This document shows, piece by piece, positions 642 to 23,136 of a stretch of 64,000 nt of DNA; position 1 is the first letter of the stretch, and every line of letters begins with the position of its first letter. The position numbers and the translations under genes are program-made. The notes under the pieces were generated by a model. It was not told where the DNA came from. It searched no databases and saw only the letters and a list, made by a program, of their open reading frames with translations. This DNA is from Candidatus Woesearchaeota archaeon. GTDB taxonomy: Archaea > Nanobdellota > Nanobdellia > Woesearchaeales > JACQSR01. Location: the NCBI GenBank assembly GCA_016211215.1, contig JACQSR010000008.1, positions 6,546 to 70,545 of the forward strand, written 5' to 3'.

Positions 642-3022
642 GCCTTTAATTCCCTAAGCTTCCTGAACGCAATCTCGGTTAAAAGTATAACCATTAATGC
701 AATTAACAGCGGCCATTTGTACTCAACCGTATGCACCGTTGTTCGCCTTGAGTTCTTTTTCACGGTTTCCACTATCCTGTCAATATCCCTGGGGTCAAAT
801 ACACTTCCGCCTACAGTTGATACAATGTCTGCCATATCTGTATTCATGCCAACATAGTCATATTCCAGAGGATAGTTAACTGCAACAACCGCATCCATGA
901 CATCATGAAATCCGGTTGAGTTTGAGGTGAACTGGGCAACATAAACGCCGTTATCCACCTTGGAAAAATCAAGCCCGGAAGGCGTCTTGTCTCCGGTAAC
1001 CGTAACGGTTGTTGGGTCTCCAACGGTGGTGTCCCTTACATCTATGTCTGACTTCATTGTCCTTGATGGGTCTCCGACTGCAAAGTTCACCATCCTTATC
1101 AGCAATTTAAAGTTATCCTTTGACAGCATTGAACCTGACCATTGGGAACCATCGTCTGTAGTGTATGCAACAACATTCCCGAGTCCATACCTCCACGCCG
1201 TGATTAGGGGGTCGCCGGTGTTTGTCGAAACCAGCACTTTTGCAATCTCCTTCGGCACAACGAAATTATAGCCCGATATCATGGCCGACACTCCAATGTT
1301 TTTTGTGATGAATTCATTTGAGTTCGTAATTGTGACACTAATCTTCTTGTCGTCCAAGTCCTCCTCCACATCACCGAACAGTATTTTAAGATTTTGCTTT
1401 TCTGAAGGCCTGTAGTAAATGCCATCGCCGGCAGACGCAAGGGCCTTCATGAATGGCTCATTTGTCCTGTCACCAACGCTTACAGTATATGTTTTTATGC
1501 CGTTCTTTGCAGCTTCTCTTGCTTCCTCCAATGCATTTTCAGGATGCTGCGTCACACCATCGGATATCACTATTATGTTTTTTGAGCCCTGGGCGCTTTG
1601 GAGGGCGTAAACTGCCTTCCTTAATCCGGCATACACAAGTGTACCGCCAGTATCGCGAAGGCTTGCAATTTTTGAGACCATTTCAGGATGCTCTGATTTC
1701 ACTCCCAGCGGGCTTACCTGGAATGCATTGTGGTTGAATGCTATTACCCCGACCTTATGGGTAGCCCCTATGTCCCTGAGTATGTCAATTGCAAGGGATT
1801 TTTCAACATCTATGGAGGCGCTTGAGCCTGCGGAAAGGCCAGTGCTTTCGGAGATGTCAATGACAATCATTATGTTCATCTTGCTTTCCGTCCTCTTTTC
1901 ACCCTCGCCTACTTTGACAGGCATTAGCGATTCTATTACATTGTCCTTGTATGAGCCGCGTGCGAATGACTTATCGCCGCCAATTACCACAAGGCCGTTG
2001 CCCTCCGAAACATAATCAGATAATGTGCTGAAACGGGGCTCTATCTCTGCCGCCTCAAGGTTGTTCAGCACAACTGCAGAAAATCCCTCAATACGCTCCG
2101 GCACCTTGTCCTCTGCCTTGACATCATAAATGCTCTGAAGGTTTTTCAGGAACGGCGAGTCCTTCTTTGTGATATAGAGAAGCCTCGGCCTTGGCACAAC
2201 CTTTACTGTCTTGTAGAAAACATTGTTCTGCGGGAAGAAATCGCTGGCCGTTGCAGTTGCCGTAATCCTGTGGAACCCTTCATCAAGCTTCAGCTTGAAT
2301 TTTTTTGTCTCGGCATTCTTCTCCTTCAGGATTTGCTGGCCATCCACATCAACTGAAACCTCGTAGTCAACTTCACCCGCCTTGTTTATGTCGAGAAGGA
2401 ATTCCGTGTCAGAATCAACAATGACTTCCCTGGGACCAACAATTTTTACGCGAACATCTGAATGCACCGGCTCCATGTCCAGTGAGTTGACAGTTGAGTT
2501 CAGCATCGATGCAAACAGCATCATGTCCCCAAGTTCCCTGCCCTTGTTGCTGTTGCCGTCGCTTACAAGCAGTATGTTGTCATTTCCCTTGAGATTTGAC
2601 AGCAGGGCATCGCCCAACGGAGAGCTTTCCCCGATGCCTATGGTCCTTACCTCGGTAGGAAGCCTTCCTTCCAACCCATTTATGAGATTTTCCGAAATCG
2701 AGGAATCGAACATGGAAAATGAAGTTGAGTTGTCCACGAGTATTGTAAGAGTGGGGTCGCCTTCCACAACCGACTCTTCGGAAGTATAAGGCGAAGCAAA
2801 TGCCACTGCGAGAAGGGCGAATATTAAAATTCTGGTGATTATCATCAGCAGCTTGGGGAATTTTGTTGATTCCTCATACTCAGCCTGGTCTTTTTTTGAC
2901 TTGAATTTTACAAAGTCAGCTCGCAGAAGCAAAATGACCAATATTGCGACAGGTATTACTGCAAGCAGGGCATCCGGATGCCTGAGGCAGTAGTTTGCGT
3001 AGCACACATTTGAAAGTATCAT
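617..3022 (-). CDS. membrane protein with two von Willebrand factor A (VWA) domains, BatB-like
   Basis: Two MIDAS-like DxSxS motifs (LVDNSTSFS and VIDISESTG) with downstream SDG motifs (LLVSDGNSNKG, IIVISDGVTQ). N-terminal and C-terminal TM helices. 4-nt overlap with the upstream gene. Confidence 0.7.
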   Translation of the reverse strand: MILSNVCYANYCLRHPDALLAVIPVAILVILLLRADFVKFKSKKDQAEYEESTKFPKLLMIITRILIFALLAVAFASPYTSEESVVEGDPTLTILVDNSTSFSMFDSSISENLINGLEGRLPTEVRTIGIGESSPLGDALLSNLKGNDNILLVSDGNSNKGRELGDMMLFASMLNSTVNSLDMEPVHSDVRVKIVGPREVIVDSDTEFLLDINKAGEVDYEVSVDVDGQQILKEKNAETKKFKLKLDEGFHRITATATASDFFPQNNVFYKTVKVVPRPRLLYITKKDSPFLKNLQSIYDVKAEDKVPERIEGFSAVVLNNLEAAEIEPRFSTLSDYVSEGNGLVVIGGDKSFARGSYKDNVIESLMPVKVGEGEKRTESKMNIMIVIDISESTGLSAGSSASIDVEKSLAIDILRDIGATHKVGVIAFNHNAFQVSPLGVKSEHPEMVSKIASLRDTGGTLVYAGLRKAVYALQSAQGSKNIIVISDGVTQHPENALEEAREAAKNGIKTYTVSVGDRTNEPFMKALASAGDGIYYRPSEKQNLKILFGDVEEDLDDKKISVTITNSNEFITKNIGVSAMISGYNFVVPKEIAKVLVSTNTGDPLITAWRYGLGNVVAYTTDDGSQWSGSMLSKDNFKLLIRMVNFAVGDPSRTMKSDIDVRDTTVGDPTTVTVTGDKTPSGLDFSKVDNGVYVAQFTSNSTGFHDVMDAVVAVNYPLEYDYVGMNTDMADIVSTVGGSVFDPRDIDRIVETVKKNSRRTTVHTVEYKWPLLIALMVILLTEIAFRKLRELKAWRSGKWQ

Positions 3023-4845
3023 GCGTCACCCCTGAATTTAACTATTAGGAGCTCTGCTATAAGCAACAATGCAATAAGCGCAAGCAACGGCAGGTCAAGG
3101 CTGACCTCGCGCTCTGATGCCTCTTCAGCGGAGCCTGCAATGGATTCCTTGCCGGATTTCAGCATGTTGATTGCACCCACATTTGATTCCTTCTCGCTTA
3201 TCAGGTTGGAGGCTATTTCACGGCCTGAGTATGAATAGAATCCTGTTTCATCAAAGTAAATCCTGTTGGTCTTTAATGTTGCGCCCGGAGTGGATACCTC
3301 CTGCTCGGCTACAGGAATAATCTCGCCGGTATGCACGTTGAAATTCCCTATGTCTTCGGCGCCTGAAAGGAAGCCTATGAGCTCGGCCCAGAATATGGGG
3401 TATTCCGAGGTTGACTTGAAATCAGATTCGCGGTCAAAGATTCCGTAATAAACAGCTTTTCCGCTTCCATGCTCCTTCATCACAATGATTGGCACTTCCG
3501 AATCTGTTTTTGCAATTGCTGTAGTGCCGTTCTGCGCAGTAACATTGAAATATGGTGATTTTGTGAAGCAGCCATCGCCAAGGTTCTTGGTGAATCTGTT
3601 CACAATCTGGACGCATACCTGGGCGCTTTGCTGCTTTGCCCCCAATGGAAATGGCAGGATGTCTGACATGTCTATTGCGCCTAAGTCATTTTGGGGCATT
3701 ACAATCACGCTTGAGCCGCCCTTGGCGTATTTTGATATCAGGTTAAAATCGCCCGGAACAAGAAGATTTTTGTCAACATCATTGATTATCACGATGTCAT
3801 GGTTGAGATTTTCGGGATTTATTGTTGGGGGCCTTCTTACATCGAGCGATACGTCCGGAATTGCCTCCATTACCGCCTGCACATAGTTGTTTTCCTTCAG
3901 GTTTGAGACCAAAAGCACCTTTACCTTTTGATTGAAGGGATTGCTTATGGATACCTTGTTGTCGAGCATAAAATCGTCCTTTCTGTCCAGTATTATCTCT
4001 GACTTTCCCTGCGGCGTTGCAAATGTGAACTCCTCGACTGAATCAGGCTCGATGCTTACCGAGGCGCTGTCAAGCTTCTTTGAATCCCGCAGGATTTCTA
4101 TATCTGACTTAATTGCGTCCTTGTTGAAGTTTTTCACGGTTACTTTGGTTGTTATCTTGCTGACGCTCAGCGCTATTATGCCGACATTATCTGAATCCCC
4201 GCTCAGGTCCCTGAACTCAACAACGTGCTCTGCTGACTCAAGCCTGCTCTTTGCAACCATTATATCAGCACCTTCGGTTGGTATAAAATCACTGAGAACA
4301 ACTACCTTGCCCTTTTCGGTGCCCAAAATGTCGTTGGCCATCAGCAACGCGTCACCAATGTTGCTTGTGGTTGCCTTGGGGGAAATCTTCCCAAGAACGG
4401 AAAGGGCATCGCTCTTGCTTCCCTTGGTGAGCAGTGCGGAAGGAACATTTTCAGCAAGTATTATGCTTATCTTCCCGTCAAGGCTTTCCTTTGCCCTGGA
4501 AAGCGCAGTGTCAAACCTTGTCCCGATGCCGTATGAGGCCTGCATCGATGCGCTTCCGTCTATTATTATTACTGTGTTTTCGGATGAGGTTGTGAAAGGC
4601 ATGATTATGTAAGGGGATGCTATGGCAAGGGCAAGCCCGGCCAATGCAAGAAACTGAAGATAAAATATTATGTTCTGCACGAATCTTCTGAAGAATGTCT
4701 GCCTCTTGGTAAGCTTCTTCTCCTCCATGATGAACATCAATGAAGGAATAACCTTTTCTATGGGCTTTGGTTTGATGAGATAGATTATTATCAGGGGTAT
4801 CAATGAAAGCAGCGCATACAATCCCCACATGTTTGTGAACTGCAT
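3019..4845 (-). CDS. BatA-like membrane protein (aerotolerance-regulator N-terminal TM domain plus VWA domain)
   Basis: N-terminus MQFTNMWGLYALLSLIPLIIIYLIKPKP matches the BatA_N pattern. VWA MIDAS motif IIIDGSASM and VVVLSDFIPTEG. C-terminal TM LPLLALIALLLIAELLIV. Confidence 0.7.
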   Translation of the reverse strand: MQFTNMWGLYALLSLIPLIIIYLIKPKPIEKVIPSLMFIMEEKKLTKRQTFFRRFVQNIIFYLQFLALAGLALAIASPYIIMPFTTSSENTVIIIDGSASMQASYGIGTRFDTALSRAKESLDGKISIILAENVPSALLTKGSKSDALSVLGKISPKATTSNIGDALLMANDILGTEKGKVVVLSDFIPTEGADIMVAKSRLESAEHVVEFRDLSGDSDNVGIIALSVSKITTKVTVKNFNKDAIKSDIEILRDSKKLDSASVSIEPDSVEEFTFATPQGKSEIILDRKDDFMLDNKVSISNPFNQKVKVLLVSNLKENNYVQAVMEAIPDVSLDVRRPPTINPENLNHDIVIINDVDKNLLVPGDFNLISKYAKGGSSVIVMPQNDLGAIDMSDILPFPLGAKQQSAQVCVQIVNRFTKNLGDGCFTKSPYFNVTAQNGTTAIAKTDSEVPIIVMKEHGSGKAVYYGIFDRESDFKSTSEYPIFWAELIGFLSGAEDIGNFNVHTGEIIPVAEQEVSTPGATLKTNRIYFDETGFYSYSGREIASNLISEKESNVGAINMLKSGKESIAGSAEEASEREVSLDLPLLALIALLLIAELLIVKFRGDA

Positions 4846-5048
4846 TATGGCGACCTCGCGCTTTTCTTCAGCAGCCTTGAAAGGTCCTCATGGCTGCATA
4901 AATCCTTGGTGACAATGAGGAATCCATCGACGGAATACCAGTAGACTTCGCTTCCAACCTCAACGCCGAGGCCCGAGCGCCCTTCCATGGGCAGCGTGGT
5001 CTGGCCCTGCGTCGTGAGCCTCGATTTTCCCAAAAAGCTGACTTTCAT
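4845..5048 (-). CDS. AbrB/SpoVT/MazE-type small DNA-binding protein
   Basis: SRLTTQGQTTLPMEGRSGLGVEVGSEVYWY fits the looped-hinge-helix pattern (KGQvtIPkeiR..lgi..Gd.v). Its TAA overlaps the ATG of the BatA-like gene (TAATG). Confidence 0.6.
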   Translation of the reverse strand: MKVSFLGKSRLTTQGQTTLPMEGRSGLGVEVGSEVYWYSVDGFLIVTKDLCSHEDLSRLLKKSARSP

Positions 5049-5132: not shown

Positions 5133-7208
5133 TCAATGCACCGTCCCTTCCTTTACCTTATCAACAACAACATCCTCAGGGCCGGCCGAGAGCGATTGAT
5201 TGCCGTACAGGACTTTGCCGTCATGGACAATCATCTTCAGCTTTTCAAACTCCTCATAGGTTACCTGCAACTTTGAGTTTTCCGAACTGCCGAACATTGC
5301 ACTTTCGCCGTCTTCTGCGGCTTTTACAGTGAGTATTCCCACATTTCCATTCTGGTCTTCCCCGGCAAGAAGCATTCCGTTGCTTTCTATGCCGCGGAGT
5401 TTTGCAGGCTTGAGGTTTGCAACAACAATTATTTTTTTGCCCTTCAGTTCGTCAGCAGAGTAATGCTTCCTGAGCCCTGCAACAAGCTGCCTTTCCTCCT
5501 TTCCAATCCGGATTTTAAGGATGTAAAGCCTGTCTGCATCGGGATGCTCCCTTACTTCAACAATCCTGGCAACTTTCAGGTCAAGGGGAAATAAATCCTT
5601 CTTCTTTTGCTCAAATCTTTCGACAAGGACTTTTGGCTCATTGATGGAATAAGCCTTGGTTTCCACGCCGATGTCATTCCACGAGAGCTTTTTCAGGTTA
5701 AGCTGGTTTTGAAGTGTGGAAGAAAAGACAGGAAGTACCGGAGAAACCACAATGCACAGTATTTTTGTGATGTCAACGCAGGTTCCCAGCACATCATGGG
5801 CTTTTTTCCTGTCCGTTTTCAGCAGCTTCCACGGCTCATTCTCCTGAAAGTATTTGTTTCCAAGCGAGGATAATGCAAGAATCCCCTTAACTGCTTCGTT
5901 GAGGTTGACGGATGAGTAGCTGTCTTTTATCCTTGCAACAACATCATCAATTTCCTTCAGCAGCTTCCCATCCCTGCCTTTGCCCCTGATTTTGCCATCA
6001 AAGTTTTTCGCAGTAAATGAAAGGACGCGATAGCAGAAATTTCCAATGTTGGCTGCAAGCTCATTGTTTATTGAATCTTCAAATTCCCTGAAGTTGAGGT
6101 CTATGTCGGCCATCTTCTTGCTGATGGTTTTTGCATAATAATACCTTAGATATTCGGGATTATACTGCGATGCAAATTCCCCTGCGGTAAGGAAAGTTCC
6201 GCGTGATTTTGACATCTTCTGCCCGTTTACCGTAAGAAAGCCGTGAACCACAATCTCTTCCGGAAGGTTGAAGCCTGAGCCCATGAGCATTGCGGGCCAG
6301 AAGAGGAAATGGAAGTAGATTATGTCCTTTCCGATGAAGTGGATTATCTTCGAGTTTTTTGACTTCCAGTAATGCTTTTCCGCGTCAAGCTTATTGGCCT
6401 TGCAGTAATGCTGGGTGGATGCTATGTAACCTATCGGCGCATCGAGCCATACATAGTAGTAGAGATTTTCCTCGCCGGGAATTTTGAACCCGAAGTATGG
6501 GCCGTCCCTTGAGATGTCCCAGTCCTGCAAACCGTCCTTAATCCAGTTTCTTATGTAGTTGACTATTTCCGGCTGAAGGGATTTATTGGCGGTAAGCCAT
6601 GAATCAAGCTTACCCGAGAAATGGCTAAGCTTAAAAAAATAATGGGTTGATTTTTTTCTTCCCGGAGAGGAGCCGCAGATGGTGCAGTAAGGGCTTACAA
6701 GGTCAGTTGTGTTGTATGTTGCATTGCAGCTCTCGCAAACATCGCCGTACTGGTCAACAGCATTGCACTTGGGGCATTTCCCCTTGACATACCTGTCCGG
6801 AAGAAACCTTTTGCAGTGCGGGCAGTATGTGAGCTCAACTTCCTTCTGGTATATTAAATCCCCTTTCTTCAGCTCATTGAATATCTGGTTGGAATAATGC
6901 TGGTTTTCGGGGCTGTTAGTTGTGTAGTAGGAATCAAAGGAGATATGGAATTTTTCAAAATCTTCCTGATGCCCGATATGAAATTTGCCTATTATTTCTT
7001 CCGGCTTCACGCCCTCCTTCATTGCTGCAATTTCTATTGGGGCGCCGTGAGCATCATCCGCGCAGCAGTAAATTGCGTCTTCGCCGATAAGCTTTAGAAA
7101 TCTCACGTAAATATCAGTCTGTATGTATTCCACCAAATGCCCTACGTGTATTGGGCCGTTGGCGTATGGCAGTGCCGATGTAATTAGGATTTTCTTTTTT
7201 GGGGGCAT
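5133..7208 (-). CDS. metG: methionyl-tRNA synthetase with C-terminal tRNA-binding (Trbp111/EMAP-like) domain
   Basis: HIGH motif (PIHVGHL), KMSKS motif (KMSKSRG), Zn knuckles (CPHCKR, CPKCN, CESCN). C-terminal VARIVEVREHPDADRLYILKIRIG. Confidence 0.97.
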   Translation of the reverse strand: MPPKKKILITSALPYANGPIHVGHLVEYIQTDIYVRFLKLIGEDAIYCCADDAHGAPIEIAAMKEGVKPEEIIGKFHIGHQEDFEKFHISFDSYYTTNSPENQHYSNQIFNELKKGDLIYQKEVELTYCPHCKRFLPDRYVKGKCPKCNAVDQYGDVCESCNATYNTTDLVSPYCTICGSSPGRKKSTHYFFKLSHFSGKLDSWLTANKSLQPEIVNYIRNWIKDGLQDWDISRDGPYFGFKIPGEENLYYYVWLDAPIGYIASTQHYCKANKLDAEKHYWKSKNSKIIHFIGKDIIYFHFLFWPAMLMGSGFNLPEEIVVHGFLTVNGQKMSKSRGTFLTAGEFASQYNPEYLRYYYAKTISKKMADIDLNFREFEDSINNELAANIGNFCYRVLSFTAKNFDGKIRGKGRDGKLLKEIDDVVARIKDSYSSVNLNEAVKGILALSSLGNKYFQENEPWKLLKTDRKKAHDVLGTCVDITKILCIVVSPVLPVFSSTLQNQLNLKKLSWNDIGVETKAYSINEPKVLVERFEQKKKDLFPLDLKVARIVEVREHPDADRLYILKIRIGKEERQLVAGLRKHYSADELKGKKIIVVANLKPAKLRGIESNGMLLAGEDQNGNVGILTVKAAEDGESAMFGSSENSKLQVTYEEFEKLKMIVHDGKVLYGNQSLSAGPEDVVVDKVKEGTVH

Positions 7209-10020: not shown

Positions 10021-10075
10021 TAGAAGAGGGATTGGCGGAGAATTTAATTAGTTTTGTATACTGCGGCATACAACC

Positions 10076-10119
10076 AATCACTTCAACCCAGATTAAAGTT
10101 ATGGCTATATATTTAAATA
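10076..10119. repeat. left copy of an imperfect direct repeat (relic promoter/5' end related to 12800..12843)
   Basis: AATCACTTCAACCCAGATTAAAGTTATGGCTATATATTTAAATA versus the copy at 12800: 38/44 identical by hand alignment. Weaker similarity continues to about 10185, including GTGAT..TATG at the same spacing from the TATA box. Confidence 0.7.
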
Positions 10120-10206
10120 GGCTTGTCTTCAGGATGTTTGGAGTGTGATGAGTATGAATGAGTACAAGAAATCTACTGCGATTGGGAACATTCTGCAATA
10201 GTCCAC

Positions 10207-12072: not shown

Positions 12073-12649
12073 CTTGTAACTGCCTCCACCATTCCATCCC
12101 TACAAGAATTACCTTGTCTTTCTTAAGCTTTTTGAAAAATTCTTTAGTGGGATTATGAAATGATTCTTTGAATTCTTTATAGCCGAGATAAACTGAGTTT
12201 AACTGCGTGCTTGTTTTCATGCTGATTTTTTTTGCAGTATTTTCAATCTCTTTAGAATTTTCAATTTTCTGAAAAACCAATAAGATATCAACATCCGAGT
12301 TTTTTGTATAAGTACCATTAGCATAAGAACCAAAAATAACAGCTATCACGGGCTTATCCTTTAATTCCCTTAAGAAATCGTTTACAGATAATTTTACTTT
12401 TGCTGGAAGCCTTTCAAATCTGGAATGTTCAACGGCGCCAAGTGCTGAACTAAGCATTTCTTTTGAGTAATCTAAGAAATAGTTAATCTGGTTACCAGCC
12501 TTTTTCTGTTTAATTAACTTGTTTATCTTTTTAAGTCCGTAATCTATGGAGGGCATTCCTAATTTGAGTTGCTTGGAAAGCCCCCTCTTATGAATCCCGG
12601 GATTAAGGTAAATTTGTTCCAAGATCCTAATTTCAGTTTTGTCATACAT
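12059..12649 (-). CDS. winged-HTH plus minimal nucleotidyltransferase (Pol-beta superfamily, MNT-like) protein
   Basis: N-terminal HTH-like IHKRGLSKQLKLGMPSIDYGLKKI. NTase signature VIFGSYANGTYTKNSDVDILLVF (GS...G....SDxD). Confidence 0.75.
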   Translation of the reverse strand: MYDKTEIRILEQIYLNPGIHKRGLSKQLKLGMPSIDYGLKKINKLIKQKKAGNQINYFLDYSKEMLSSALGAVEHSRFERLPAKVKLSVNDFLRELKDKPVIAVIFGSYANGTYTKNSDVDILLVFQKIENSKEIENTAKKISMKTSTQLNSVYLGYKEFKESFHNPTKEFFKKLKKDKVILVGMEWWRQLQDEEA

Positions 12650-12692: not shown

Positions 12693-12799
12693 CTTTGCTT
12701 TTCATTCCCGCCTTAAAGTGATGTAAGCTATTCTACGCCCCAAGCCCTGCGAATAGCAGTTAAGATTTGTGCCTCTAGATTCTTGTTCCTGATACCCCG

Positions 12800-12843
12800 A
12801 ATCACTTCGACCCAAACTGAAGTTATGGACATATATTTAAATA
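12800..12843. repeat. right copy of the imperfect direct repeat; functional promoter region of the beta-propeller gene
   Basis: AATCACTTCGACCCAAACTGAAGTTATGGACATATATTTAAATA. TTTAAATA at 12836-12843 lies 22 nt upstream of the GTG at 12866. Confidence 0.7.
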
Positions 12844-12865
12844 TGGCGGGCTTACGGAGCATCAG

Positions 12866-14974
12866 GTGATAATTATGTATAAACACAACAAGATTATCTT
12901 TGCGGTTATAGCGGTTTCATTACTTCTCATAATAGGGTGCGCCAAGGAGCCTGTAAAACCTGAAGAGCCACAGCAATCATTAGAGGCAACTCAGGAGCTA
13001 AAGAAGTTTAATTCTGCCGAGGATGTCAAAGACTTCCTGCAGAAGAGTTCCCAGCAGCAGCCGATTTACAGGAGAGGGGGAATAATTGCTGACATGATGG
13101 TGGAGACTGCAGCAGTTTCGAAGGAGGCAGCTCCAAGCGCAGCACCAGCAGCCGAGTATTCAACAACAAACGTACAGGTGGAAGGGGTTGATGAGGCAGA
13201 TTTTGTAAAGAATGACGGAAAGTATATATATGTTCTTGCGCAGAATAAATTGGTCATTGTCAATGCTTTCCCCGCTGAAGATGCAAAGAAGATTTCCACA
13301 ACAGAAATAAAAGGGCATCCAAGGGACATGTTTGTGAACGGGGATACATTAGTTGTATTTACGGATGATTACGATGAGATTTACACAATTTCCGATTATG
13401 ACTTCCTGCCGAGGCCAACCCAGACGCAAATGACGCACGCAATAATTTATGATATTTCCGACAGAAGCAGCCCTGAGAAGGAAAAAGATTACACTATTGA
13501 TGGTTATTACTTCCAGTCGAGGATGATAGGCGATTATGTGTACCTGATTTCAAAGAAGGATGCCTACTATGGTCCGGGGCCTATAATGCCAATATTAAGG
13601 GAGGCATCAACAAAGATAGTTCCCGATGTTTACTACTTTGACAACCCGGAGCTTAATTATGTATTCCACACAATAACTTCAATAAACCTGAAGAACGAGG
13701 AGACAAAGGCAAAGTCATTCCTGATGGGATATTCCAACACGGTTTATGTGTCGCAGGACAACATCTACATTGCATACCAAAAAAATCTGCCGTACTCTTA
13801 CTATCAGTCTTACAACTCAGACAGGTTCTTCAAGGTTGTTGTGCCTCTGCTGCCGGATGAAGTCCAGGACAAAATCGGGAAGATAAAGGCGAAAGACCTG
13901 GAACCATACGCAGAATGGTCGGAGATTTCCGACGCCCTTGAGGAAATGTACAACAAAATGGATGAAGCGGAAAAAGAAGAGCTGAGCGAGGAAATTACGG
14001 AGGCTATAGAAGAATACGAGATAAAGCTTGAAGTGGAGAGAAGAAAGACAGTAATCCACAAGATTGGCATTAGCAATGGAGACATAGAATACAAGGAAAA
14101 GGGCGAAGTTCCGGGATACCTATTAAACCAGTTTTCGCTTGACGAGTTTGACAATCACCTTAGAGTTGCAACCACGACAGAGCTTTATGTAAGGAACAAG
14201 GCTGAAATGTACAACAATGTTTATGTGCTCGACGAGGATATGGACAAAGTTGGAGAGATAGGGGCGATTGCAAGGGACGAAAGGATATACTCCACAAGGT
14301 TTTTGGGCGACAGGCTTTACATGGTTACATTCAAAAGAGTTGACCCCTTGTTTGTGATTGACCTGAGCAATCCCGAGAATCCAAAGGTTCTTGGCGAGCT
14401 TAAGATTCCGGGATTTTCAGATTACCTGCACCCATACGATGAAGACCACATAATAGGAATAGGAAAGGAAACAGAGGGAAATGAATGGGGCGGAGTTTCA
14501 ATTAAAGGCGTAAAGGTTGCATTATTTGACGTCTCTGATGTTGAGAATCCAAAGCAGGTTGACAGTATTGAAATAGGGGAGCGCGGGACAGACTCAGAAG
14601 CATTAAGAGACCACAAGGCATTCCTGTTCGACAAGAGAAACGACCTTGTTGTGATTCCGATCAGGGAGGTTAAGGGTGAGGTGTATGACGAAAGAGGATA
14701 CTATCGTCAAAGAATATGGCAGGGCGCCTATGTTCTTGAGGTAAGCCCGGAAAAGGGAGTAAAAGTCAGGGGCAAGATTTCCCACGGCGAGGAGGATGAA
14801 AGATACTACTGGAATTCCCCAAGCGCAGTCAGAAGGTCATTGTACATGGATGATGTCCTCTACACAGTATCGGCAAGGAAGATAATGATGAACGGCATTG
14901 AAGATGGCTCTGACATAAACGAGGTTAAGCTGCCCTTTGAGGAGGAAAAGTACTACCAGTACGGGTGGTATTAG
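12866..14974 (+). CDS. secreted beta-propeller domain protein (PF09826 Beta_propel family), lipoprotein-like signal
   Basis: YSTTNVQVEGVDEADFVKNDGKYIYV is the hallmark N-terminal motif of this family. Signal/lipobox-like LLLIIGCAKEP. The start could be the GTG at 12866 or the ATG at 12875. Confidence 0.85.
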   Translation: MIIMYKHNKIIFAVIAVSLLLIIGCAKEPVKPEEPQQSLEATQELKKFNSAEDVKDFLQKSSQQQPIYRRGGIIADMMVETAAVSKEAAPSAAPAAEYSTTNVQVEGVDEADFVKNDGKYIYVLAQNKLVIVNAFPAEDAKKISTTEIKGHPRDMFVNGDTLVVFTDDYDEIYTISDYDFLPRPTQTQMTHAIIYDISDRSSPEKEKDYTIDGYYFQSRMIGDYVYLISKKDAYYGPGPIMPILREASTKIVPDVYYFDNPELNYVFHTITSINLKNEETKAKSFLMGYSNTVYVSQDNIYIAYQKNLPYSYYQSYNSDRFFKVVVPLLPDEVQDKIGKIKAKDLEPYAEWSEISDALEEMYNKMDEAEKEELSEEITEAIEEYEIKLEVERRKTVIHKIGISNGDIEYKEKGEVPGYLLNQFSLDEFDNHLRVATTTELYVRNKAEMYNNVYVLDEDMDKVGEIGAIARDERIYSTRFLGDRLYMVTFKRVDPLFVIDLSNPENPKVLGELKIPGFSDYLHPYDEDHIIGIGKETEGNEWGGVSIKGVKVALFDVSDVENPKQVDSIEIGERGTDSEALRDHKAFLFDKRNDLVVIPIREVKGEVYDERGYYRQRIWQGAYVLEVSPEKGVKVRGKISHGEEDERYYWNSPSAVRRSLYMDDVLYTVSARKIMMNGIEDGSDINEVKLPFEEEKYYQYGWY

Positions 14975-16867: not shown

Positions 16868-18214
16868 ATGAATAAAAGAATCTTGGTTGGACTTTTCTGC
16901 TTTATGGCAGTGATTTTTTCAGGTTTGGCTTACGCTAACCCGGTTATTACGGCAATACCGAATCAGGTTGTCAATGAAGGCAGCCTGCTTACAGTGAGCA
17001 TAACTTCAACTGCTCCGAACAACGGAGGCACAGTCTGGTCTTTGCTTTCATTTCCATCAGGAGCTACACTGGCGAATGTCAGTGATACGCAGGCAACATT
17101 CTCATACACTCCGGGAGATGTCACCACATCAAGCATACAGTTTCCTGTAACCGTGCAGGCTTCGGATGCTGACTCTTCTGATGTAAAGTCATTCATAGTT
17201 ACAGTTAACGATGTTTCCCAGCCATCCGGCAACCTTTCAAAGCTGGAGATTGTTGACCTTGATGTTAAAGTAGGATCAAACACCGACAAGAACGTTGACA
17301 ACAACTCAAAGATAAGCGAGGAAGGGCAGCCGGGCGATTCCGTAACTTTCTCTATTGAAATAAAGAATATCTTTGATGAGGATGTCAATGACACCGAGAT
17401 AAAGGACGTTTCCGTAACAGTAACCATATTCGGCATTGATGATGGAGATGACCTCGATGAGGATTCGGACGAGTTTGACCTTGATGCAGAAGAAAAGGAC
17501 ACTGTTGACATAGACTTTGAAATCCCCATGGAAGTTGAGGAAGGCATCTTTGATGTGGAGATAAGGGTTGAGGGTGAAGATGAGTTTGACAACAAGCACG
17601 AGCTTGTATGGGAGCTTCAGATTGAGGTTGAGAAGGACGACCACAAGATTATGATTAGGGACGCTACCCTAAACCCGTCGTCTGTTCAGTGCGCCCGTGA
17701 TGCAACGCTTGATGTTAACATACTTAACATAGGCTCAAAGGACGAAGATGAAGTGGTGCTGGAGATAAGGAATTCAGACCTTGGGATAAATGTCAGGGAC
17801 ACCGACCTTGAGCTTGATGAAGGTATTGACGACAACGACTACTCAAAGACAGTCAGCATAGATGCAACCGGTGCGAAGGCAGGCAACTACCCTGTAACAG
17901 TCAAGACATACTACGACACAAGCAAGCAGTCTGACTCAAAGACTCTTACTTTGACGGTGCAGGAATGCGCTGAGACAAAGCCTGTTGTTGTAATCACGCC
18001 TCCCGAGGAGGAAGAGGAAGATGAGGAGGAAGTTGAAGTTGTAACCGTGCCTCCTGTAACCACGGGAACCGTTCCAGTAACTGCACAGCCGGTTGCGCCA
18101 ACGACATTTGCGGTTAGGGACACGACAACCTACACGGCAATACTGATTATACTTATTGTTATAATCGTGATACTGCTTGTGTTTGCAATAGTGTCAATCA
18201 TAAGGAGAAGGTAA
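16868..18214 (+). CDS. acidic cell-surface protein, tandem paralogue of 15056..16753, with N-terminal cadherin-like/He_PIG-type Ig domain
   Basis: Shares colinear motifs with the upstream gene (IFGIDDGDDLDEDSDEFDLDAEEKD, FDVEIRVEGEDE, IEVEKDDHKI, KTYYDT). PEEEEEDEEE linker. C-terminal TM plus RRR. Confidence 0.7.
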   Translation: MNKRILVGLFCFMAVIFSGLAYANPVITAIPNQVVNEGSLLTVSITSTAPNNGGTVWSLLSFPSGATLANVSDTQATFSYTPGDVTTSSIQFPVTVQASDADSSDVKSFIVTVNDVSQPSGNLSKLEIVDLDVKVGSNTDKNVDNNSKISEEGQPGDSVTFSIEIKNIFDEDVNDTEIKDVSVTVTIFGIDDGDDLDEDSDEFDLDAEEKDTVDIDFEIPMEVEEGIFDVEIRVEGEDEFDNKHELVWELQIEVEKDDHKIMIRDATLNPSSVQCARDATLDVNILNIGSKDEDEVVLEIRNSDLGINVRDTDLELDEGIDDNDYSKTVSIDATGAKAGNYPVTVKTYYDTSKQSDSKTLTLTVQECAETKPVVVITPPEEEEEDEEEVEVVTVPPVTTGTVPVTAQPVAPTTFAVRDTTTYTAILIILIVIIVILLVFAIVSIIRRR

Positions 18215-18216
18215 GC

Positions 18217-18238
18217 TTCTCTTTTTTATTTTCTTTTT
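18217..18238 (+). terminator. oligo-T tract after the surface protein gene (archaeal-type terminator candidate)
   Basis: TTCTCTTTTTTATTTTCTTTTT starts 3 nt after the TAA at 18212-18214. Confidence 0.35.
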
Positions 18239-18242
18239 AAAT

Positions 18243-18923
18243 ATGTCCGATATGAAGTTGGAATATAGAATTGCGAAGACTCATGTTGGGAAAGGGTTAA
18301 TTGAGACACCTGACGTAGTTGTGCAAGTGGCAAATCCTCATTGGAGTTATGCAAGACATTTACCTGCAGATTGGGATTTATCTAAGATTGATAGAAGGAC
18401 TCATGTTACTTCTGATTTGCTGACAAATCTTGAAAATGCTCCAGAAGGTCCGGAAATGGATTTAAGTCCATTAAGAAATGACCAAAGGGCATCTGGAATT
18501 GTTTACGGTAGCAATCCAATACAAAATATGTACAATTTAATCGGAGAATATGCCCAAAGATTTCCAGAGCATGAATTTTTTGGAAAATGGGGGGGTTATC
18601 AACCATATAAAGAGGGGAAAAGATTTGTTTTTTATGTTGAAGATGAAAATGATGCAAATTTAATGGTGCAAAGGCTTAATGAAGTTTCTAAAACAATGAG
18701 AATTCCAATTTCAGCAAATCATCAGTATGGTTTGACACAATATCAAGATTTTGTTGAGATTAATGAAAGATTAAGAAGTACTGTTAGAAACAAAGAAGGA
18801 TTCAAACAGCTTCTTGGGGAATTAGAAGGATTCCCACATTTCTTCCATGAATTCTTTTTAACAAATGACTTCTCAGATCCTCAAGCCCCTTCTAAAGATA
18901 GCCGCAACTCAGATTTAATATAA
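18243..18923 (+). CDS. hypothetical protein (AT-rich orphan)
   Basis: Clean ORF with no motif recognised. Its stop overlaps the left copy of the 37/38-nt repeat. Confidence 0.5.
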   Translation: MSDMKLEYRIAKTHVGKGLIETPDVVVQVANPHWSYARHLPADWDLSKIDRRTHVTSDLLTNLENAPEGPEMDLSPLRNDQRASGIVYGSNPIQNMYNLIGEYAQRFPEHEFFGKWGGYQPYKEGKRFVFYVEDENDANLMVQRLNEVSKTMRIPISANHQYGLTQYQDFVEINERLRSTVRNKEGFKQLLGELEGFPHFFHEFFLTNDFSDPQAPSKDSRNSDLI

Positions 18924-18954
18924 CCCGCTACTCAATAAACTTCCTCATCCTGTC
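18917..18954. repeat. left copy of direct repeat duplicating the 3' end of gene 19789..20586
   Basis: AATATAACCCGCTACTCAATAAACTTCCTCATCCTGTC versus 19779..19815 AATATAACCCCTACTCAATAAACTTCCTCATCCTGTC, with a single 1-nt indel. The minus strand of this copy still reads ..ALDRMRKFIE*, as at the real gene end. Confidence 0.85.
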
Positions 18955-19102
18955 TAACGCCCTTACGAAGTAAAGTGCAACGGGGTCAAGGAGCGCGACG
19001 AAGAATTTGGAAAAAAAGTCCCCGTCAGTAAATATGTAAATACCACTAAATGGTGGTAAATAATAGTAAAGTTTATATAGTTCGGATTATTGCAAGGAGA
19101 AT

Positions 19103-19693
19103 GTGAACCATTTAGAATACTCTCAACAGGTTAAAGCAGAAATAGAAAACTCTCCTTTGTATAGCCTGTTAAGGAACCATTTTATAGGTCAAAAAAGATT
19201 TTCTGAGTCTTTGGGAGAAGGAGATCACTTCAGACATCTGAAAACTAAAAGATTAGACTCAGGATTGTGGATTGCTATAAAAGAGCCAAAACAAGAGCAA
19301 GAAAATCCAGTCCCCTTAGAAGCACATTGTCGAGCGACATACGCTTTCGCTGAATCTTATCATCCGGCGGGTCACAAAAGTATTCAGGATATATTAAAAA
19401 ATCCGGAAAGGTATTATTTGGTAACTAGTGCTTTTTGTATAGGCGTAAAATATAGACAACAACATTTGGGTCTTTGGAATTATGCTGCTTTGGTAGAGGA
19501 TTTAGCATCTTTGAGCATTCCTATTAAACCAGCAGTAAAATCGGGTGATAAGGGAGAGGTTAAAATAGGTGATAAGACTATTCACATTTATTTTGATATA
19601 GACTATTTACTAGAACAGCTTGTAGAAGATATGGGTGGGGAAGATAAGATTCCGAATTGTATGGTTGATGATAAAATGATGATTTTTGAGTAA
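19103..19693 (+). CDS. hypothetical protein (orphan between the two repeat copies)
   Basis: GTG start in the track. No motif recognised. AT-rich. Confidence 0.5.
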   Translation: MNHLEYSQQVKAEIENSPLYSLLRNHFIGQKRFSESLGEGDHFRHLKTKRLDSGLWIAIKEPKQEQENPVPLEAHCRATYAFAESYHPAGHKSIQDILKNPERYYLVTSAFCIGVKYRQQHLGLWNYAALVEDLASLSIPIKPAVKSGDKGEVKIGDKTIHIYFDIDYLLEQLVEDMGGEDKIPNCMVDDKMMIFE

Positions 19694-19778
19694 GGTGCAG
19701 TTATTATTAAGCCGACCCCTTAATTTTCTTTATCAATTTTATCGAACAAGCCCCATTAAATAAATCTCCAGCCGATTG

Positions 19779-19815
19779 AATATAACCCCTACTCAATAAA
19801 CTTCCTCATCCTGTC
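19779..19815. repeat. right copy of direct repeat (authentic 3' end of the NTase-HEPN-like gene)
   Basis: See 18917..18954. Covers the stop codon and last 9 codons (DRMRKFIE*) of 19789..20586, plus 10 nt downstream. Confidence 0.85.
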
Positions 19816-20586
19816 GATGAACTCCTGGGCTTCCTTGTGGCATTTGTCGTATTCAACGCCGCTAATCTGAGTTATGTTGCGGTGCGTGATGTCCTTGGAG
19901 AGCTTGTAGAATTTCCTCATGGTGGTTGCGTATCTTTCTTCCAGCAAACCCTTCCTGACCATCTTCTGCTCGAGCATGTCTGCAACGTGGTCCGGCGAAG
20001 GCGGTATTTCGCCAAGCTTCATCAAAGATGCATGCGCAGCGTCAATAACTCCCCAGTAAAGGTCTATTGTGCCCTGCAGCACATGCCACTTGGAGTTGTG
20101 CAGCGAGTTTGGAGCGCGTACAAAGTAATTCCATATGCTCTCCTGAGTTGGCCTTATCCTGCCCTTTTTCAGGAGCATCTGCAACGGCTCAAAGAACCCG
20201 GTATCGGACAGTGCAACACCATCGCGCAGGATGTTTATCGCAATTGGGTCGCCGTTCCTTACGTATTCCCAGAAGGATGAAAAGCGCAGTGATATTATGT
20301 GAAGGCGGGGAGAGATTTTCATGATGTAGCGCTGCACGATAAGCCTGTACGCCTCGACAAGCTCAGGGGTAATGTCAACCAGGGTATCATCAATGACTAG
20401 GAGAACATCAACGTCGCTTCCCTTCGTCTGTGTGCCGCGTGCCGAAGAGCCGAATATTACAACTGCGCGCAGAAACGCCTTGAGCTCCTTCTCAATCTCG
20501 GCGGCAAACTGGGTTGCAATGTCCATGTCTGACTTATTGTAGAGCTCGAGGTTGGGATTTGCCTTTCTTGGAATCTGGAACTTCAT
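19789..20586 (-). CDS. nucleotidyltransferase domain protein with C-terminal helical HEPN-like domain
   Basis: VVIFGSSARGTQTKGSDVDVLLVID is the minimal NTase signature. The C-terminal ~130 aa is all-helical by composition. No clean Rx4-6H motif seen, so HEPN is tentative. Confidence 0.75.
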   Translation of the reverse strand: MKFQIPRKANPNLELYNKSDMDIATQFAAEIEKELKAFLRAVVIFGSSARGTQTKGSDVDVLLVIDDTLVDITPELVEAYRLIVQRYIMKISPRLHIISLRFSSFWEYVRNGDPIAINILRDGVALSDTGFFEPLQMLLKKGRIRPTQESIWNYFVRAPNSLHNSKWHVLQGTIDLYWGVIDAAHASLMKLGEIPPSPDHVADMLEQKMVRKGLLEERYATTMRKFYKLSKDITHRNITQISGVEYDKCHKEAQEFIDRMRKFIE

Positions 20587-20686
20587 TTAGCCACCGGGTA
20601 GTTACCCAAATTTTCTTTATTTAAAGCTTTCTGATTTCAGGTCCCGAATAACAACCTTTTAAAACAGGCCTGTTTCATCAACCGGC

Positions 20687-21112
20687 ATGAAGAAATACGA
20701 GTACTTTGACCACACCGCTGATGTCGGCATTTTCGCCTATGGGAAGGATACTGCGGAGTTGTTCAGGAACGCGGCACTCGCAACAACAGGGCAGATGGTT
20801 GAGATTAAGGGTGTAAAACCGAAGGTTGAGAGGAAGATTTCGCTGAAGAGCGATAACCTTGAAGGGCTTCTTTTTGATTTCCTTGGAGAGCTGATTTACC
20901 TTAAGGACGCTGATAACCTGCTGTTCTCAAAATATGGCATATCTGTAAAGAAAGTGGAAAAGGGTTATAAACTAAGCGGAACTTTAAAGGGCGACAGGAT
21001 AAACAAAGATGCGATGGAGCTGTTGAACGACGTCAAAGCTGTAACAATGCATATGTTTAAGGTTGAAAAAACAAAAGGAGGCTACAAGGCAACGATAATA
21101 CTGGATATATGA
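20687..21112 (+). CDS. archease (RtcB activator)
   Basis: N-terminal YEYFDHTADVGIFAYG hallmark. 141 aa. ATGA overlap with rtcB. Confidence 0.9.
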   Translation: MKKYEYFDHTADVGIFAYGKDTAELFRNAALATTGQMVEIKGVKPKVERKISLKSDNLEGLLFDFLGELIYLKDADNLLFSKYGISVKKVEKGYKLSGTLKGDRINKDAMELLNDVKAVTMHMFKVEKTKGGYKATIILDI

Positions 21113-22692: not shown

Positions 22693-23136
22693 ATGGTTAA
22701 CGAATACAGCCAGCTCATAAAGAGCATAGGCAAAGCTCTTGAAGAAGGGAGGAGACAAGTTGTTCGCACGGTAAATAATATCTTAGTTACCACTTATTGG
22801 GAAATTGGAAAACGCATAGTAGAGTTTGAAAAACAAACGGGGAAAAAATCAGCTTATGGCGAAAAGTTATTCGAAAGGATAGCAAAAGACTTAAGGATGA
22901 TGTATGGCAAAGGGTTCAGCAGAAGCAACATCATTTACATGAGGCTTATTTACCTGGAATACCCAAAAAGTCAGACACTGTCTGACCAATTGACGTGGAG
23001 CCATTATATTGAACTTTTAGGGATAGACTATTCACTTGAACGAAGGTTTTACGAGAAACAATGCATGCTTGAAAACTGGTCTGACACCCGAAGAGACGCC
23101 TCAAGCAAGGGGCGTTCAGAAAACGCAAGCATTTAA
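22693..23136 (+). pseudogene. truncated DUF1016/YhcG-family gene (N-terminal domain only; PD-(D/E)xK nuclease domain missing)
   Basis: TTYWEIGKRIVE, LTWSHYIELL and RRFYEKQCMLENWS match the family N-terminal half. The ORF ends 20 codons later. No continuation seen in other frames. Confidence 0.6.

Follow-up and report, generated by a model that had tools for sequence, protein, structure and literature searches.

A duplicated gene 3′ end around an AT-rich insertion in a Woesearchaeota genome: a candidate scar of homology-driven gene gain

Classical integration into tRNA genes, carried out by tyrosine integrases of the SSV or pNOB8 type, belongs to the same group of systems as the archaeal integrated elements found at the 3′ ends of protein-coding genes. 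The latter have been described in Thaumarchaeota (PMC6563490). Displaced gene ends are also known from the Rhs, contact-dependent inhibition (CDI) and type VI secretion system (T6SS) loci, where homology-facilitated illegitimate recombination is proposed to leave orphaned 3′ regions, together with immunity genes, in arrays of "sequential displacement" (PMC5361080). Here we analyse a locus that resembles both, in a stretch of 64,000 nucleotides (nt) from an uncultured Candidatus Woesearchaeota archaeon (assembly GCA_016211215.1, contig JACQSR010000008.1, positions 6,546 to 70,545; hereafter the window, whose own coordinates are used below). There, a direct repeat of 37/38 nt duplicates the 3′ end of a nucleotidyltransferase gene and brackets a small AT-rich gene; a first-pass annotation, made from the sequence alone, had taken it for the attachment (att)-like scar of a site-specific integration. 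From the comparisons presented below we lean, by no great distance, towards foreign DNA having been inserted beside a conserved gene through homology, with no dedicated integrase, and the repeat being the scar of that event.

The duplicated gene end and its site in relatives

The left copy of the repeat (18917–18954, 38 nt) is AATATAACCCGCTACTCAATAAACTTCCTCATCCTGTC, that is, AATATAACCC(G)CTACTCAATAAACTTCCTCATCCTGTC, and the right copy (19779–19815, 37 nt) has no such G, which is the sole difference between them; both the sequence and the two sets of coordinates are exactly those first annotated. The copies of the nucleotidyltransferase gene end lie about 860 bases apart. The right one comprises the TAG stop codon, the last eight codons (DRMRKFIE; nine had been counted earlier) and 10 nt of 3′ trailer of the open reading frame (ORF) 19789–20586, on the minus strand. 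As had been noticed, the left copy also reads ..DRMRKFIE* on the minus strand, but it forms part of no ORF with a start codon: the frame running through it is open for 51 codons and has no start, and no minus-strand ORF of at least 40 amino acids (aa) is listed there. The left copy is a dead, displaced and non-coding remnant of the nucleotidyltransferase gene end. The plus-strand ORF 18243–18923 does end inside it, as annotated, with its TAA stop at 18921–18923, and ORF 19103–19693, also on the plus strand, is the only one between the copies. The features of the locus are as follows, where older and younger anticipate the order of gains argued below.

18215–18242, no strand: T-rich spacer after the surface-protein gene (16868–18214, +) and left edge of the extra DNA with respect to the empty site; it aligns with the start of the spacer of about 50 nt in the same-genus genome G001 and then diverges (blastn, synteny)
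18243–18923, plus strand: older insert, a gene for a 226-aa protein of a patchy accessory family (ORF; homologs in genomes G099 and G143, absent from the same-genus genomes G001–G003)
18850–18916, no strand: degraded outer part of the left copy, covering the last part of the 226-aa gene and the trailer (gapped local alignment)
18917–18954, no strand: left copy, 38 nt, remnant of the nucleotidyltransferase gene end (sequence, repeat search)
18955–19102, plus strand: left non-coding part of the younger insert, with an archaeal TATA-like box (sequence)
19103–19693, plus strand: younger insert, a gene for a 196-aa protein of a small, patchy family (ORF; 16 distant homologs)
19722–19778, no strand: degraded outer part of the right copy, which would have arrived with the younger insert (gapped local alignment)
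19779–19815, no strand: right copy, 37 nt, with the working stop codon, the last eight codons and 10 nt of trailer (sequence, ORF, repeat search)
19789–20586, minus strand: target gene, coding for a 265-aa nucleotidyltransferase (PF01909; orthologs across the order)

The exact 27-nt core of the repeat, CTACTCAATAAACTTCCTCATCCTGTC, has two matches in the window with up to three mismatches allowed, compared to none in 100 shuffled sequences, and chance was rejected as its origin. Searching the whole assembly (1,062,683 bases in 35 contigs, 84% complete) returned the same two sites only, so that the possibility of a common intergenic motif, raised in the first-pass annotation, was discarded; a repeat finder lists the copies as 30 nt at 97%. 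The other concern raised there, a chimeric assembly, was likewise rejected, since two independent Logan assemblies from other samples (SRR4343430 and SRR12113385) reproduce the arrangement, with all five genes and the two copies, at 99.9% identity; the differences from the window are 3 bases in 6,001 for the first and 3 in 3,156 for the second. Among the Logan assemblies searched we found neither a variant without the insert nor a strain without the younger insert alone. The base composition of the island is foreign, with a G+C content (GC) of 0.31–0.39 over 18200–19850 against 0.45–0.52 in its flanks and 0.452 for the genome, and neither the rest of the genome nor the three other genomes of the genus contain matching DNA.

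A gapped local alignment pairs 18850–18954 with 19722–19815 (score 79), extending the duplication outwards from the repeat. On the trailer side, degraded similarity continues for some 35–65 nt (18850–18916 against 19722–19778), with about 70% identity and four indels, and only 29 of 2,000 shuffles align equally well over the 45 nt to the left of the core. Over the 45 nt to its right, 504 of 2,000 shuffles do so, which defines a sharp gene-internal edge. The earlier statement that similarity stops abruptly after the repeat is thus correct for the gene-internal side, but not for the trailer side. Because a decayed counterpart of the 226-aa gene's 3′ tail and of the trailer stands just before the right copy, this gene, or at least its tail, is the older gain; two successive gains, of the 226-aa gene and later of the 196-aa gene, are the best reading. 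Of the two successive insertions at the same site that had been proposed, then, the succession holds up, whereas a mechanism common to both finds no support, the first insert having left no detectable repeat. Additionally, there are no differences in the 27 nt of the core, although the left copy is non-coding there, and the step from none to about 30% divergence takes place within a few bases. As the left core does not code, such a step is hard to obtain from an in-place duplication followed by drift; it fits the meeting of two diverged alleles, whose cores would be alike either through the conservation of the protein end or through homogenising recombination.

The target gene codes for a protein with an N-terminal nucleotidyltransferase domain (PF01909, E 4.4e-9), for which a search by sequence found no solved relative. 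Matches to it occur in all 41 related genomes compared (that of the window, three congeneric ones and one from each of 37 other families of the order), nearly all of them with a full-length ortholog of 86% to 34% identity, and it is a single-copy core gene of the order. In G001 (86% protein identity), contiguous sequence joins the surface-protein gene to the nucleotidyltransferase gene, with about 50 nt from one stop codon to the other and neither of the inserted genes; therefore, the whole AT-rich segment 18243–19778, with both genes, is extra DNA in the window. The empty site whose search had been proposed thus exists for the complete segment, but we did not find any strain lacking only the 861-bp younger unit. 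In turn, the site in G002 (81%) is occupied by a 188-aa Taw3-like gene (NF047731, E 1.2e-48; L022 6031–6597), on the same strand as the nucleotidyltransferase gene and overlapping its stop (TAATG). Of 24 orthologous loci, 13 have a taw3 gene downstream of the nucleotidyltransferase gene and in its orientation, and in four of these 1–1.4 kb of extra DNA separates the two genes; no taw3 was found in G000, G001 or G003 (genomes 84–91% complete). The co-directional taw3 in these loci and in G002 indicates that the ancestral state was the nucleotidyltransferase gene followed by taw3. The flank is variable across the order; in the lineage of the window, taw3 was apparently lost and 1.56 kb were gained. 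None of the 24 orthologous loci has the end of the nucleotidyltransferase gene in duplicate (20-mers with up to 2 mismatches, over 1–6.6 kb downstream, as far as the contigs reach).

On the other side of the nucleotidyltransferase gene, upstream, lie the archease and RtcB genes. Across the order, this gene is flanked by taw3 (tRNA wyosine-derivative methyltransferase) on one side and by archease and RtcB on the other, a linkage that hints at a nucleotidyltransferase acting on the ends of tRNA or other RNA molecules.

Islands of the same build and the inserted genes

A genome-wide listing of local exact repeats retrieved two kinds of sequences, tandem paralogs and sharp-edged copies of gene ends bracketing low-GC DNA; the local repeats on contigs C32, C10 and C3 were rejected as scars, being tandem paralogs or internal repeats. 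At least three further islands in this genome are of the same build as that beside the nucleotidyltransferase gene. On contig C7, a 93-nt exact repeat (17126–17218 and 20619–20711; 2127–2219 and 5620–5712 in locus L072), with copies 3.5 kb apart, is situated 49 nt before the stop codon of a gene for a 758-aa membrane protein, the complete duplicated 3′ end being about 145 nt long. The distal copy runs into a diverged alternative C-terminal tail with a stop codon of its own (ILALLLMYFFSRKGKQKL versus IAVLIFLYVFHKRKQ), and the copies bracket three genes (radical-SAM, TrmB-like and methyltransferase). This island has empty sites in G003 and G001, which also lack one further gene outside the repeat, as occurs at the nucleotidyltransferase locus. 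On contig C20, 78 exact nt (about 118 when mismatches are included) are duplicated at 4920–4997 and 6356–6433 (1921–1998 and 3357–3434 in locus L073); they represent a KaiC/RecA-like ATPase gene from its promoter to codon 24 and surround a HEPN-like/nucleotidyltransferase gene pair. The third is in the window itself, where a 67-nt direct repeat with 76% identity (10068–10134 and 12792–12858) brackets an AT-rich islet of 2.7 kb. In another species of the genus, contig C55 of G003 contains three copies, of 232 nt, of the same KaiC-like gene end (2914–3145, 4257–4488 and 6344–6575 in locus L089) with 100/90/75% identity; two HEPN-like/nucleotidyltransferase pairs lie between the copies, and identity falls with distance from the intact gene. 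The finding of five unrelated targets, with repeats of 37–232 nt and no integrase, points to a homology-driven process rather than to one site-specific enzyme.

Other repeats and gene remnants were observed during this survey. A dispersed family of repeats containing GCAAGCGAGAAGCTGCTAAAGGCGAGCGT and AAGAAGCTCGACTTTAGGCTGCTAAAGGA occurs on contigs C2, C3, C13 and C20 (e.g., C13 30689–30830 and 35198–35339; C20 75206–75350; C3 45706–45800). Contig C2 also has a 119-nt exact direct repeat (12209–12327 and 13258–13376), whose first copy begins at the 3′ end of a 144-aa ORF and whose second copy reaches the end of the contig; it could be another gene-end duplication or an overlap of assembly ends. 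Within the window, 22693–23136 codes for the N-terminal domain of DUF1016 alone (147 aa), apparently a truncated YhcG-like nuclease gene, and is followed by a gene for a 290-aa protein without family match.

The two genes at the nucleotidyltransferase locus had been described as orphans, which is not strictly so for either of them. The 226-aa protein gave no convincing match to families in Pfam, PHROG, PADLOC or NCBIfam, and its single-sequence AlphaFold model is poor (predicted local distance difference test, pLDDT, 43), but it has homologs with 61% and 58% identity in G099 and G143, from other families of the order; it is missing from the 398 other genomes searched, including G001–G003. The neighborhoods of these homologs are unrelated, one of them adjoining an UppS-like gene and the other being near hydrogenase-like genes, and their C-terminal tails differ beyond a shared motif, F(L/F)T(N/D)(D/E).

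The 196-aa protein has no relative among 401 genomes of the order, nor did a word search find any, but an exhaustive HMMER search of 1.8 billion representative proteins retrieved 16 distant relatives of similar length, with 45% to about 30% identity. Those on readable contigs are coded among housekeeping genes, in unrelated chromosomal contexts, with no nucleotidyltransferase gene or mobile-element gene nearby; the closest one (45%) has a gene in the same orientation next to it, on a contig of 1,088 nt. No comparable flanking repeats were seen around the homologs of either inserted gene. The 196-aa protein had no family match in Pfam, NCBIfam or PHROG, and no phage or plasmid homolog was found. 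Its AlphaFold model, from an alignment of 10 sequences, is confident (pLDDT 86.7; predicted template modelling score 0.86). Foldseek comparisons of the model to the PDB gave no significant match, and all the weak ones were to protein-kinase-like folds (best E 0.04). Motifs LGEG, WIAIKEP, LVEDL and FDID, with K/R at the "VAIK" position, recall a minimal protein-kinase-like domain, although we take this only as a lead. An archaeal TATA-like box, AAAGTTTATATA, is found at 19070–19081, about 25 nt before the GTG start codon, and from the archaeal TATA consensus it is the putative promoter of this gene.

Routes to the duplication

Under the homology-driven insertion that we favor, the ancestor of the genus would have had the nucleotidyltransferase gene followed by taw3, as it is still the case in 13 of the 24 related genomes; taw3 would then have been lost, and the 226-aa gene gained, ending 5 nt from the stop codon of the nucleotidyltransferase gene. 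Later, some 0.8 kb of DNA would have arrived from a related lineage, carrying the 196-aa gene with its own promoter together with the donor's own nucleotidyltransferase gene end and trailer. Its recombination with the resident gene end may have taken one of two courses: a single (Campbell-type) crossover, had the piece been circular, or, had it been linear, homologous anchoring on the gene side combined with illegitimate joining at 18954/18955. In both cases the resulting order would be the older gene, the displaced old gene end (left copy), the new DNA, the new trailer and the intact gene (right copy). Several observations support such a route: a homologous segment is duplicated, with the old end displaced, around the incoming DNA; one junction lacks homology while the other grades into diverged homologous sequence; the site is empty in G001 and has a different occupant, taw3, in G002, the AT-rich island being unique in the genome and absent from G001–G003; and other targets in the genome show the same build, their repeats varying widely in length.

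Some facts weigh against this route. No donor allele, with a member of the 196-aa family adjoining a nucleotidyltransferase gene, appeared in the genomes and contigs searched, from databases with only four species of this genus, and a near-perfect 37-nt core with sharp edges is exactly what attL and attR look like. The route also draws on the general notion that duplication, rather than deletion, is a usual outcome of an insertion with one-sided homology. Archaeal elements do integrate into the 3′-distal parts of protein genes, using att sites of 8–69 bp (PMC6563490). Finally, with 84% of the genome recovered, an integrase acting in trans could have remained unassembled or be borne by a virus.

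The main rival is site-specific integration by a tyrosine integrase, in which an attP site matching the gene end would have given attL and attR, either with the later deletion of the integrase or with the 861-bp unit behaving as a non-autonomous satellite moved in trans by the integrase of a virus or plasmid. Topology does not decide between this model and homology-driven insertion, because both give the same product topology. Integration would account well for near-identical direct repeats of which one restores the gene end, for a repeat length within the archaeal att range (14 of 68 thaumarchaeal elements use 3′-distal parts of protein genes; PMC6563490) and for the location of the single-base difference, which is in the element-side copy, where a mismatch between attP and attB outside the crossover would put it; the incompleteness of the genome also leaves room for it. 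Nevertheless, family searches and inspection of the window ORFs revealed no integrase or recombinase between or beside the copies, where there is space for one 196-aa gene only. The assembly contains a single tyrosine recombinase, a 303-aa Xer-like protein (PF00589) coded on contig C24 among ordinary genes, and neither an SSV-type integrase (PF16795) nor a serine recombinase (PF00239). There is no tRNA gene in the window. The 27-mer has no match in viral contigs, and a degenerate 24-nt form of the core gave, among metagenome contigs, a single chance match in a eukaryote-like ORF; likewise, no circular form and no viral or plasmid relative of the insert was found, and the viral or circular contigs with the 196-aa gene next to the 37-mer, whose search had been proposed, did not appear. 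The absence of a second copy at all 24 orthologous gene ends, the location of homologs of the cargo gene at unrelated sites without flanking repeats, the degraded similarity beyond the core, which is not expected of a pure att core, and the existence of similar scars at unrelated targets in the same genome, with repeats of 37–232 nt, also speak against it. Consequently, of the att-like scar first proposed we retain that an insertion left its scar where a conserved gene ends, while the site-specific mechanism is disfavored and, in our estimation, unlikely.

An event in place, without foreign homology, would also leave direct repeats flanking the insert exactly and need no recombinase, in agreement with the failure to find one. 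Here a staggered break or replication slippage would have duplicated some 40–100 nt of the junction with capture of unrelated DNA, that is, a long target-site duplication or a capture by end joining. The two copies should then have diverged evenly, yet 27 non-coding nt are unchanged next to 35–65 nt with about 70% identity and four indels, and the site contains no transposase domain or terminal inverted repeats joining the ends of the insert. To our knowledge, target duplications of 37–100 nt are far longer than those made by known transposases or casposases. Target-site duplications and att sites have been contrasted for archaeal elements (PMC6563490). We consider an origin in place improbable. 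A transposon or casposon with target-site duplication was rejected for the lack of inverted repeats and transposase and for a repeat of at least 37 nt, as was an integron cassette for the lack of an IntI-type integrase and of structured sites of the attC type.

Least credible of all, and in our view very improbable, is that the left copy was kept for a function, such as pairing, as an antisense segment in the 3′ untranslated region of the 226-aa mRNA, with the nucleotidyltransferase mRNA at its end, or binding a protein that both sites require, since the perfect conservation of 27 non-coding nt beside diverged sequence is countered by the absence of an RNA family at the site, of a significant fold in the left copy and its neighborhood (z = -0.47) and of any palindrome in the repeat, by the presence of just two copies in the genome and by the three available versions of the locus, which differ by 3 bases in 3–6 kb and are too alike to judge conservation, and a function would in any case not explain how the copy originated.

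Significance and comparison with known systems

Taken alone, the locus is an ordinary insertion scar of a known kind, and the recurring integrase-less pattern in the genus is the part worth following. The gain of accessory genes by tiny symbiotic archaea, with genomes of about 1 Mb and very few mobile-element genes, is poorly known, and the empty site in a sister species makes this a clean, datable case of gene gain beside a core gene without a recognizable integrase. More speculatively, this genus of DPANN archaea might routinely gain cassettes of one to three genes independently of integrases, the copy of the gene end (37–232 nt) serving as portable homology, with repeated use leading to outward-decaying arrays that would be functional analogs of integrons or of Rhs orphan arrays; the locus described here would then be one fresh instance. 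Should the pattern hold in more genomes, homologous recombination on short copies of gene ends would be indicated as a main route of cassette gain in these organisms.

The locus has several traits of the archaeal elements integrated at the 3′ ends of protein genes in Thaumarchaeota (PMC6563490): its direct repeat measures about 37 nt and one of the copies completes the target gene, a close relative has the site unoccupied, and the cargo is AT-rich and foreign. It differs from them in that no integrase occurs here in or beside the insert, nor in the assembly save for the one Xer-like gene; in that the insert is 0.86 kb and contains one gene, whereas the described elements are multigenic; and in that more DNA is missing from the empty site than the repeats enclose, with degraded similarity beyond the core. 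Integron gene cassettes are also single-gene units of 0.5–1 kb inserted beside a fixed point, with the older units pushed outward, but here no integron integrase is present, the repeat duplicates the end of the neighboring gene instead of forming an imperfect palindrome like attC, and the unit has its own promoter-like TATA box.

The loci of Rhs, CDI and T6SS, examples of Campbell-type (single-crossover) integration and homology-facilitated illegitimate recombination, differ from the one described here in their targets, polymorphic toxin loci as opposed to the housekeeping or surface-protein genes of a DPANN-type archaeon; besides, just 27 coding nt and the trailer were displaced here, one gene makes up the cargo and no donor allele was seen. 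They have in common with it the use of a conserved gene as homology anchor, the retention of the older end and its cargo, which are pushed outward, and no need for an integrase; the three-copy array of G003, in which repeat identity decreases with distance from the intact gene, is a further likeness to their arrays.

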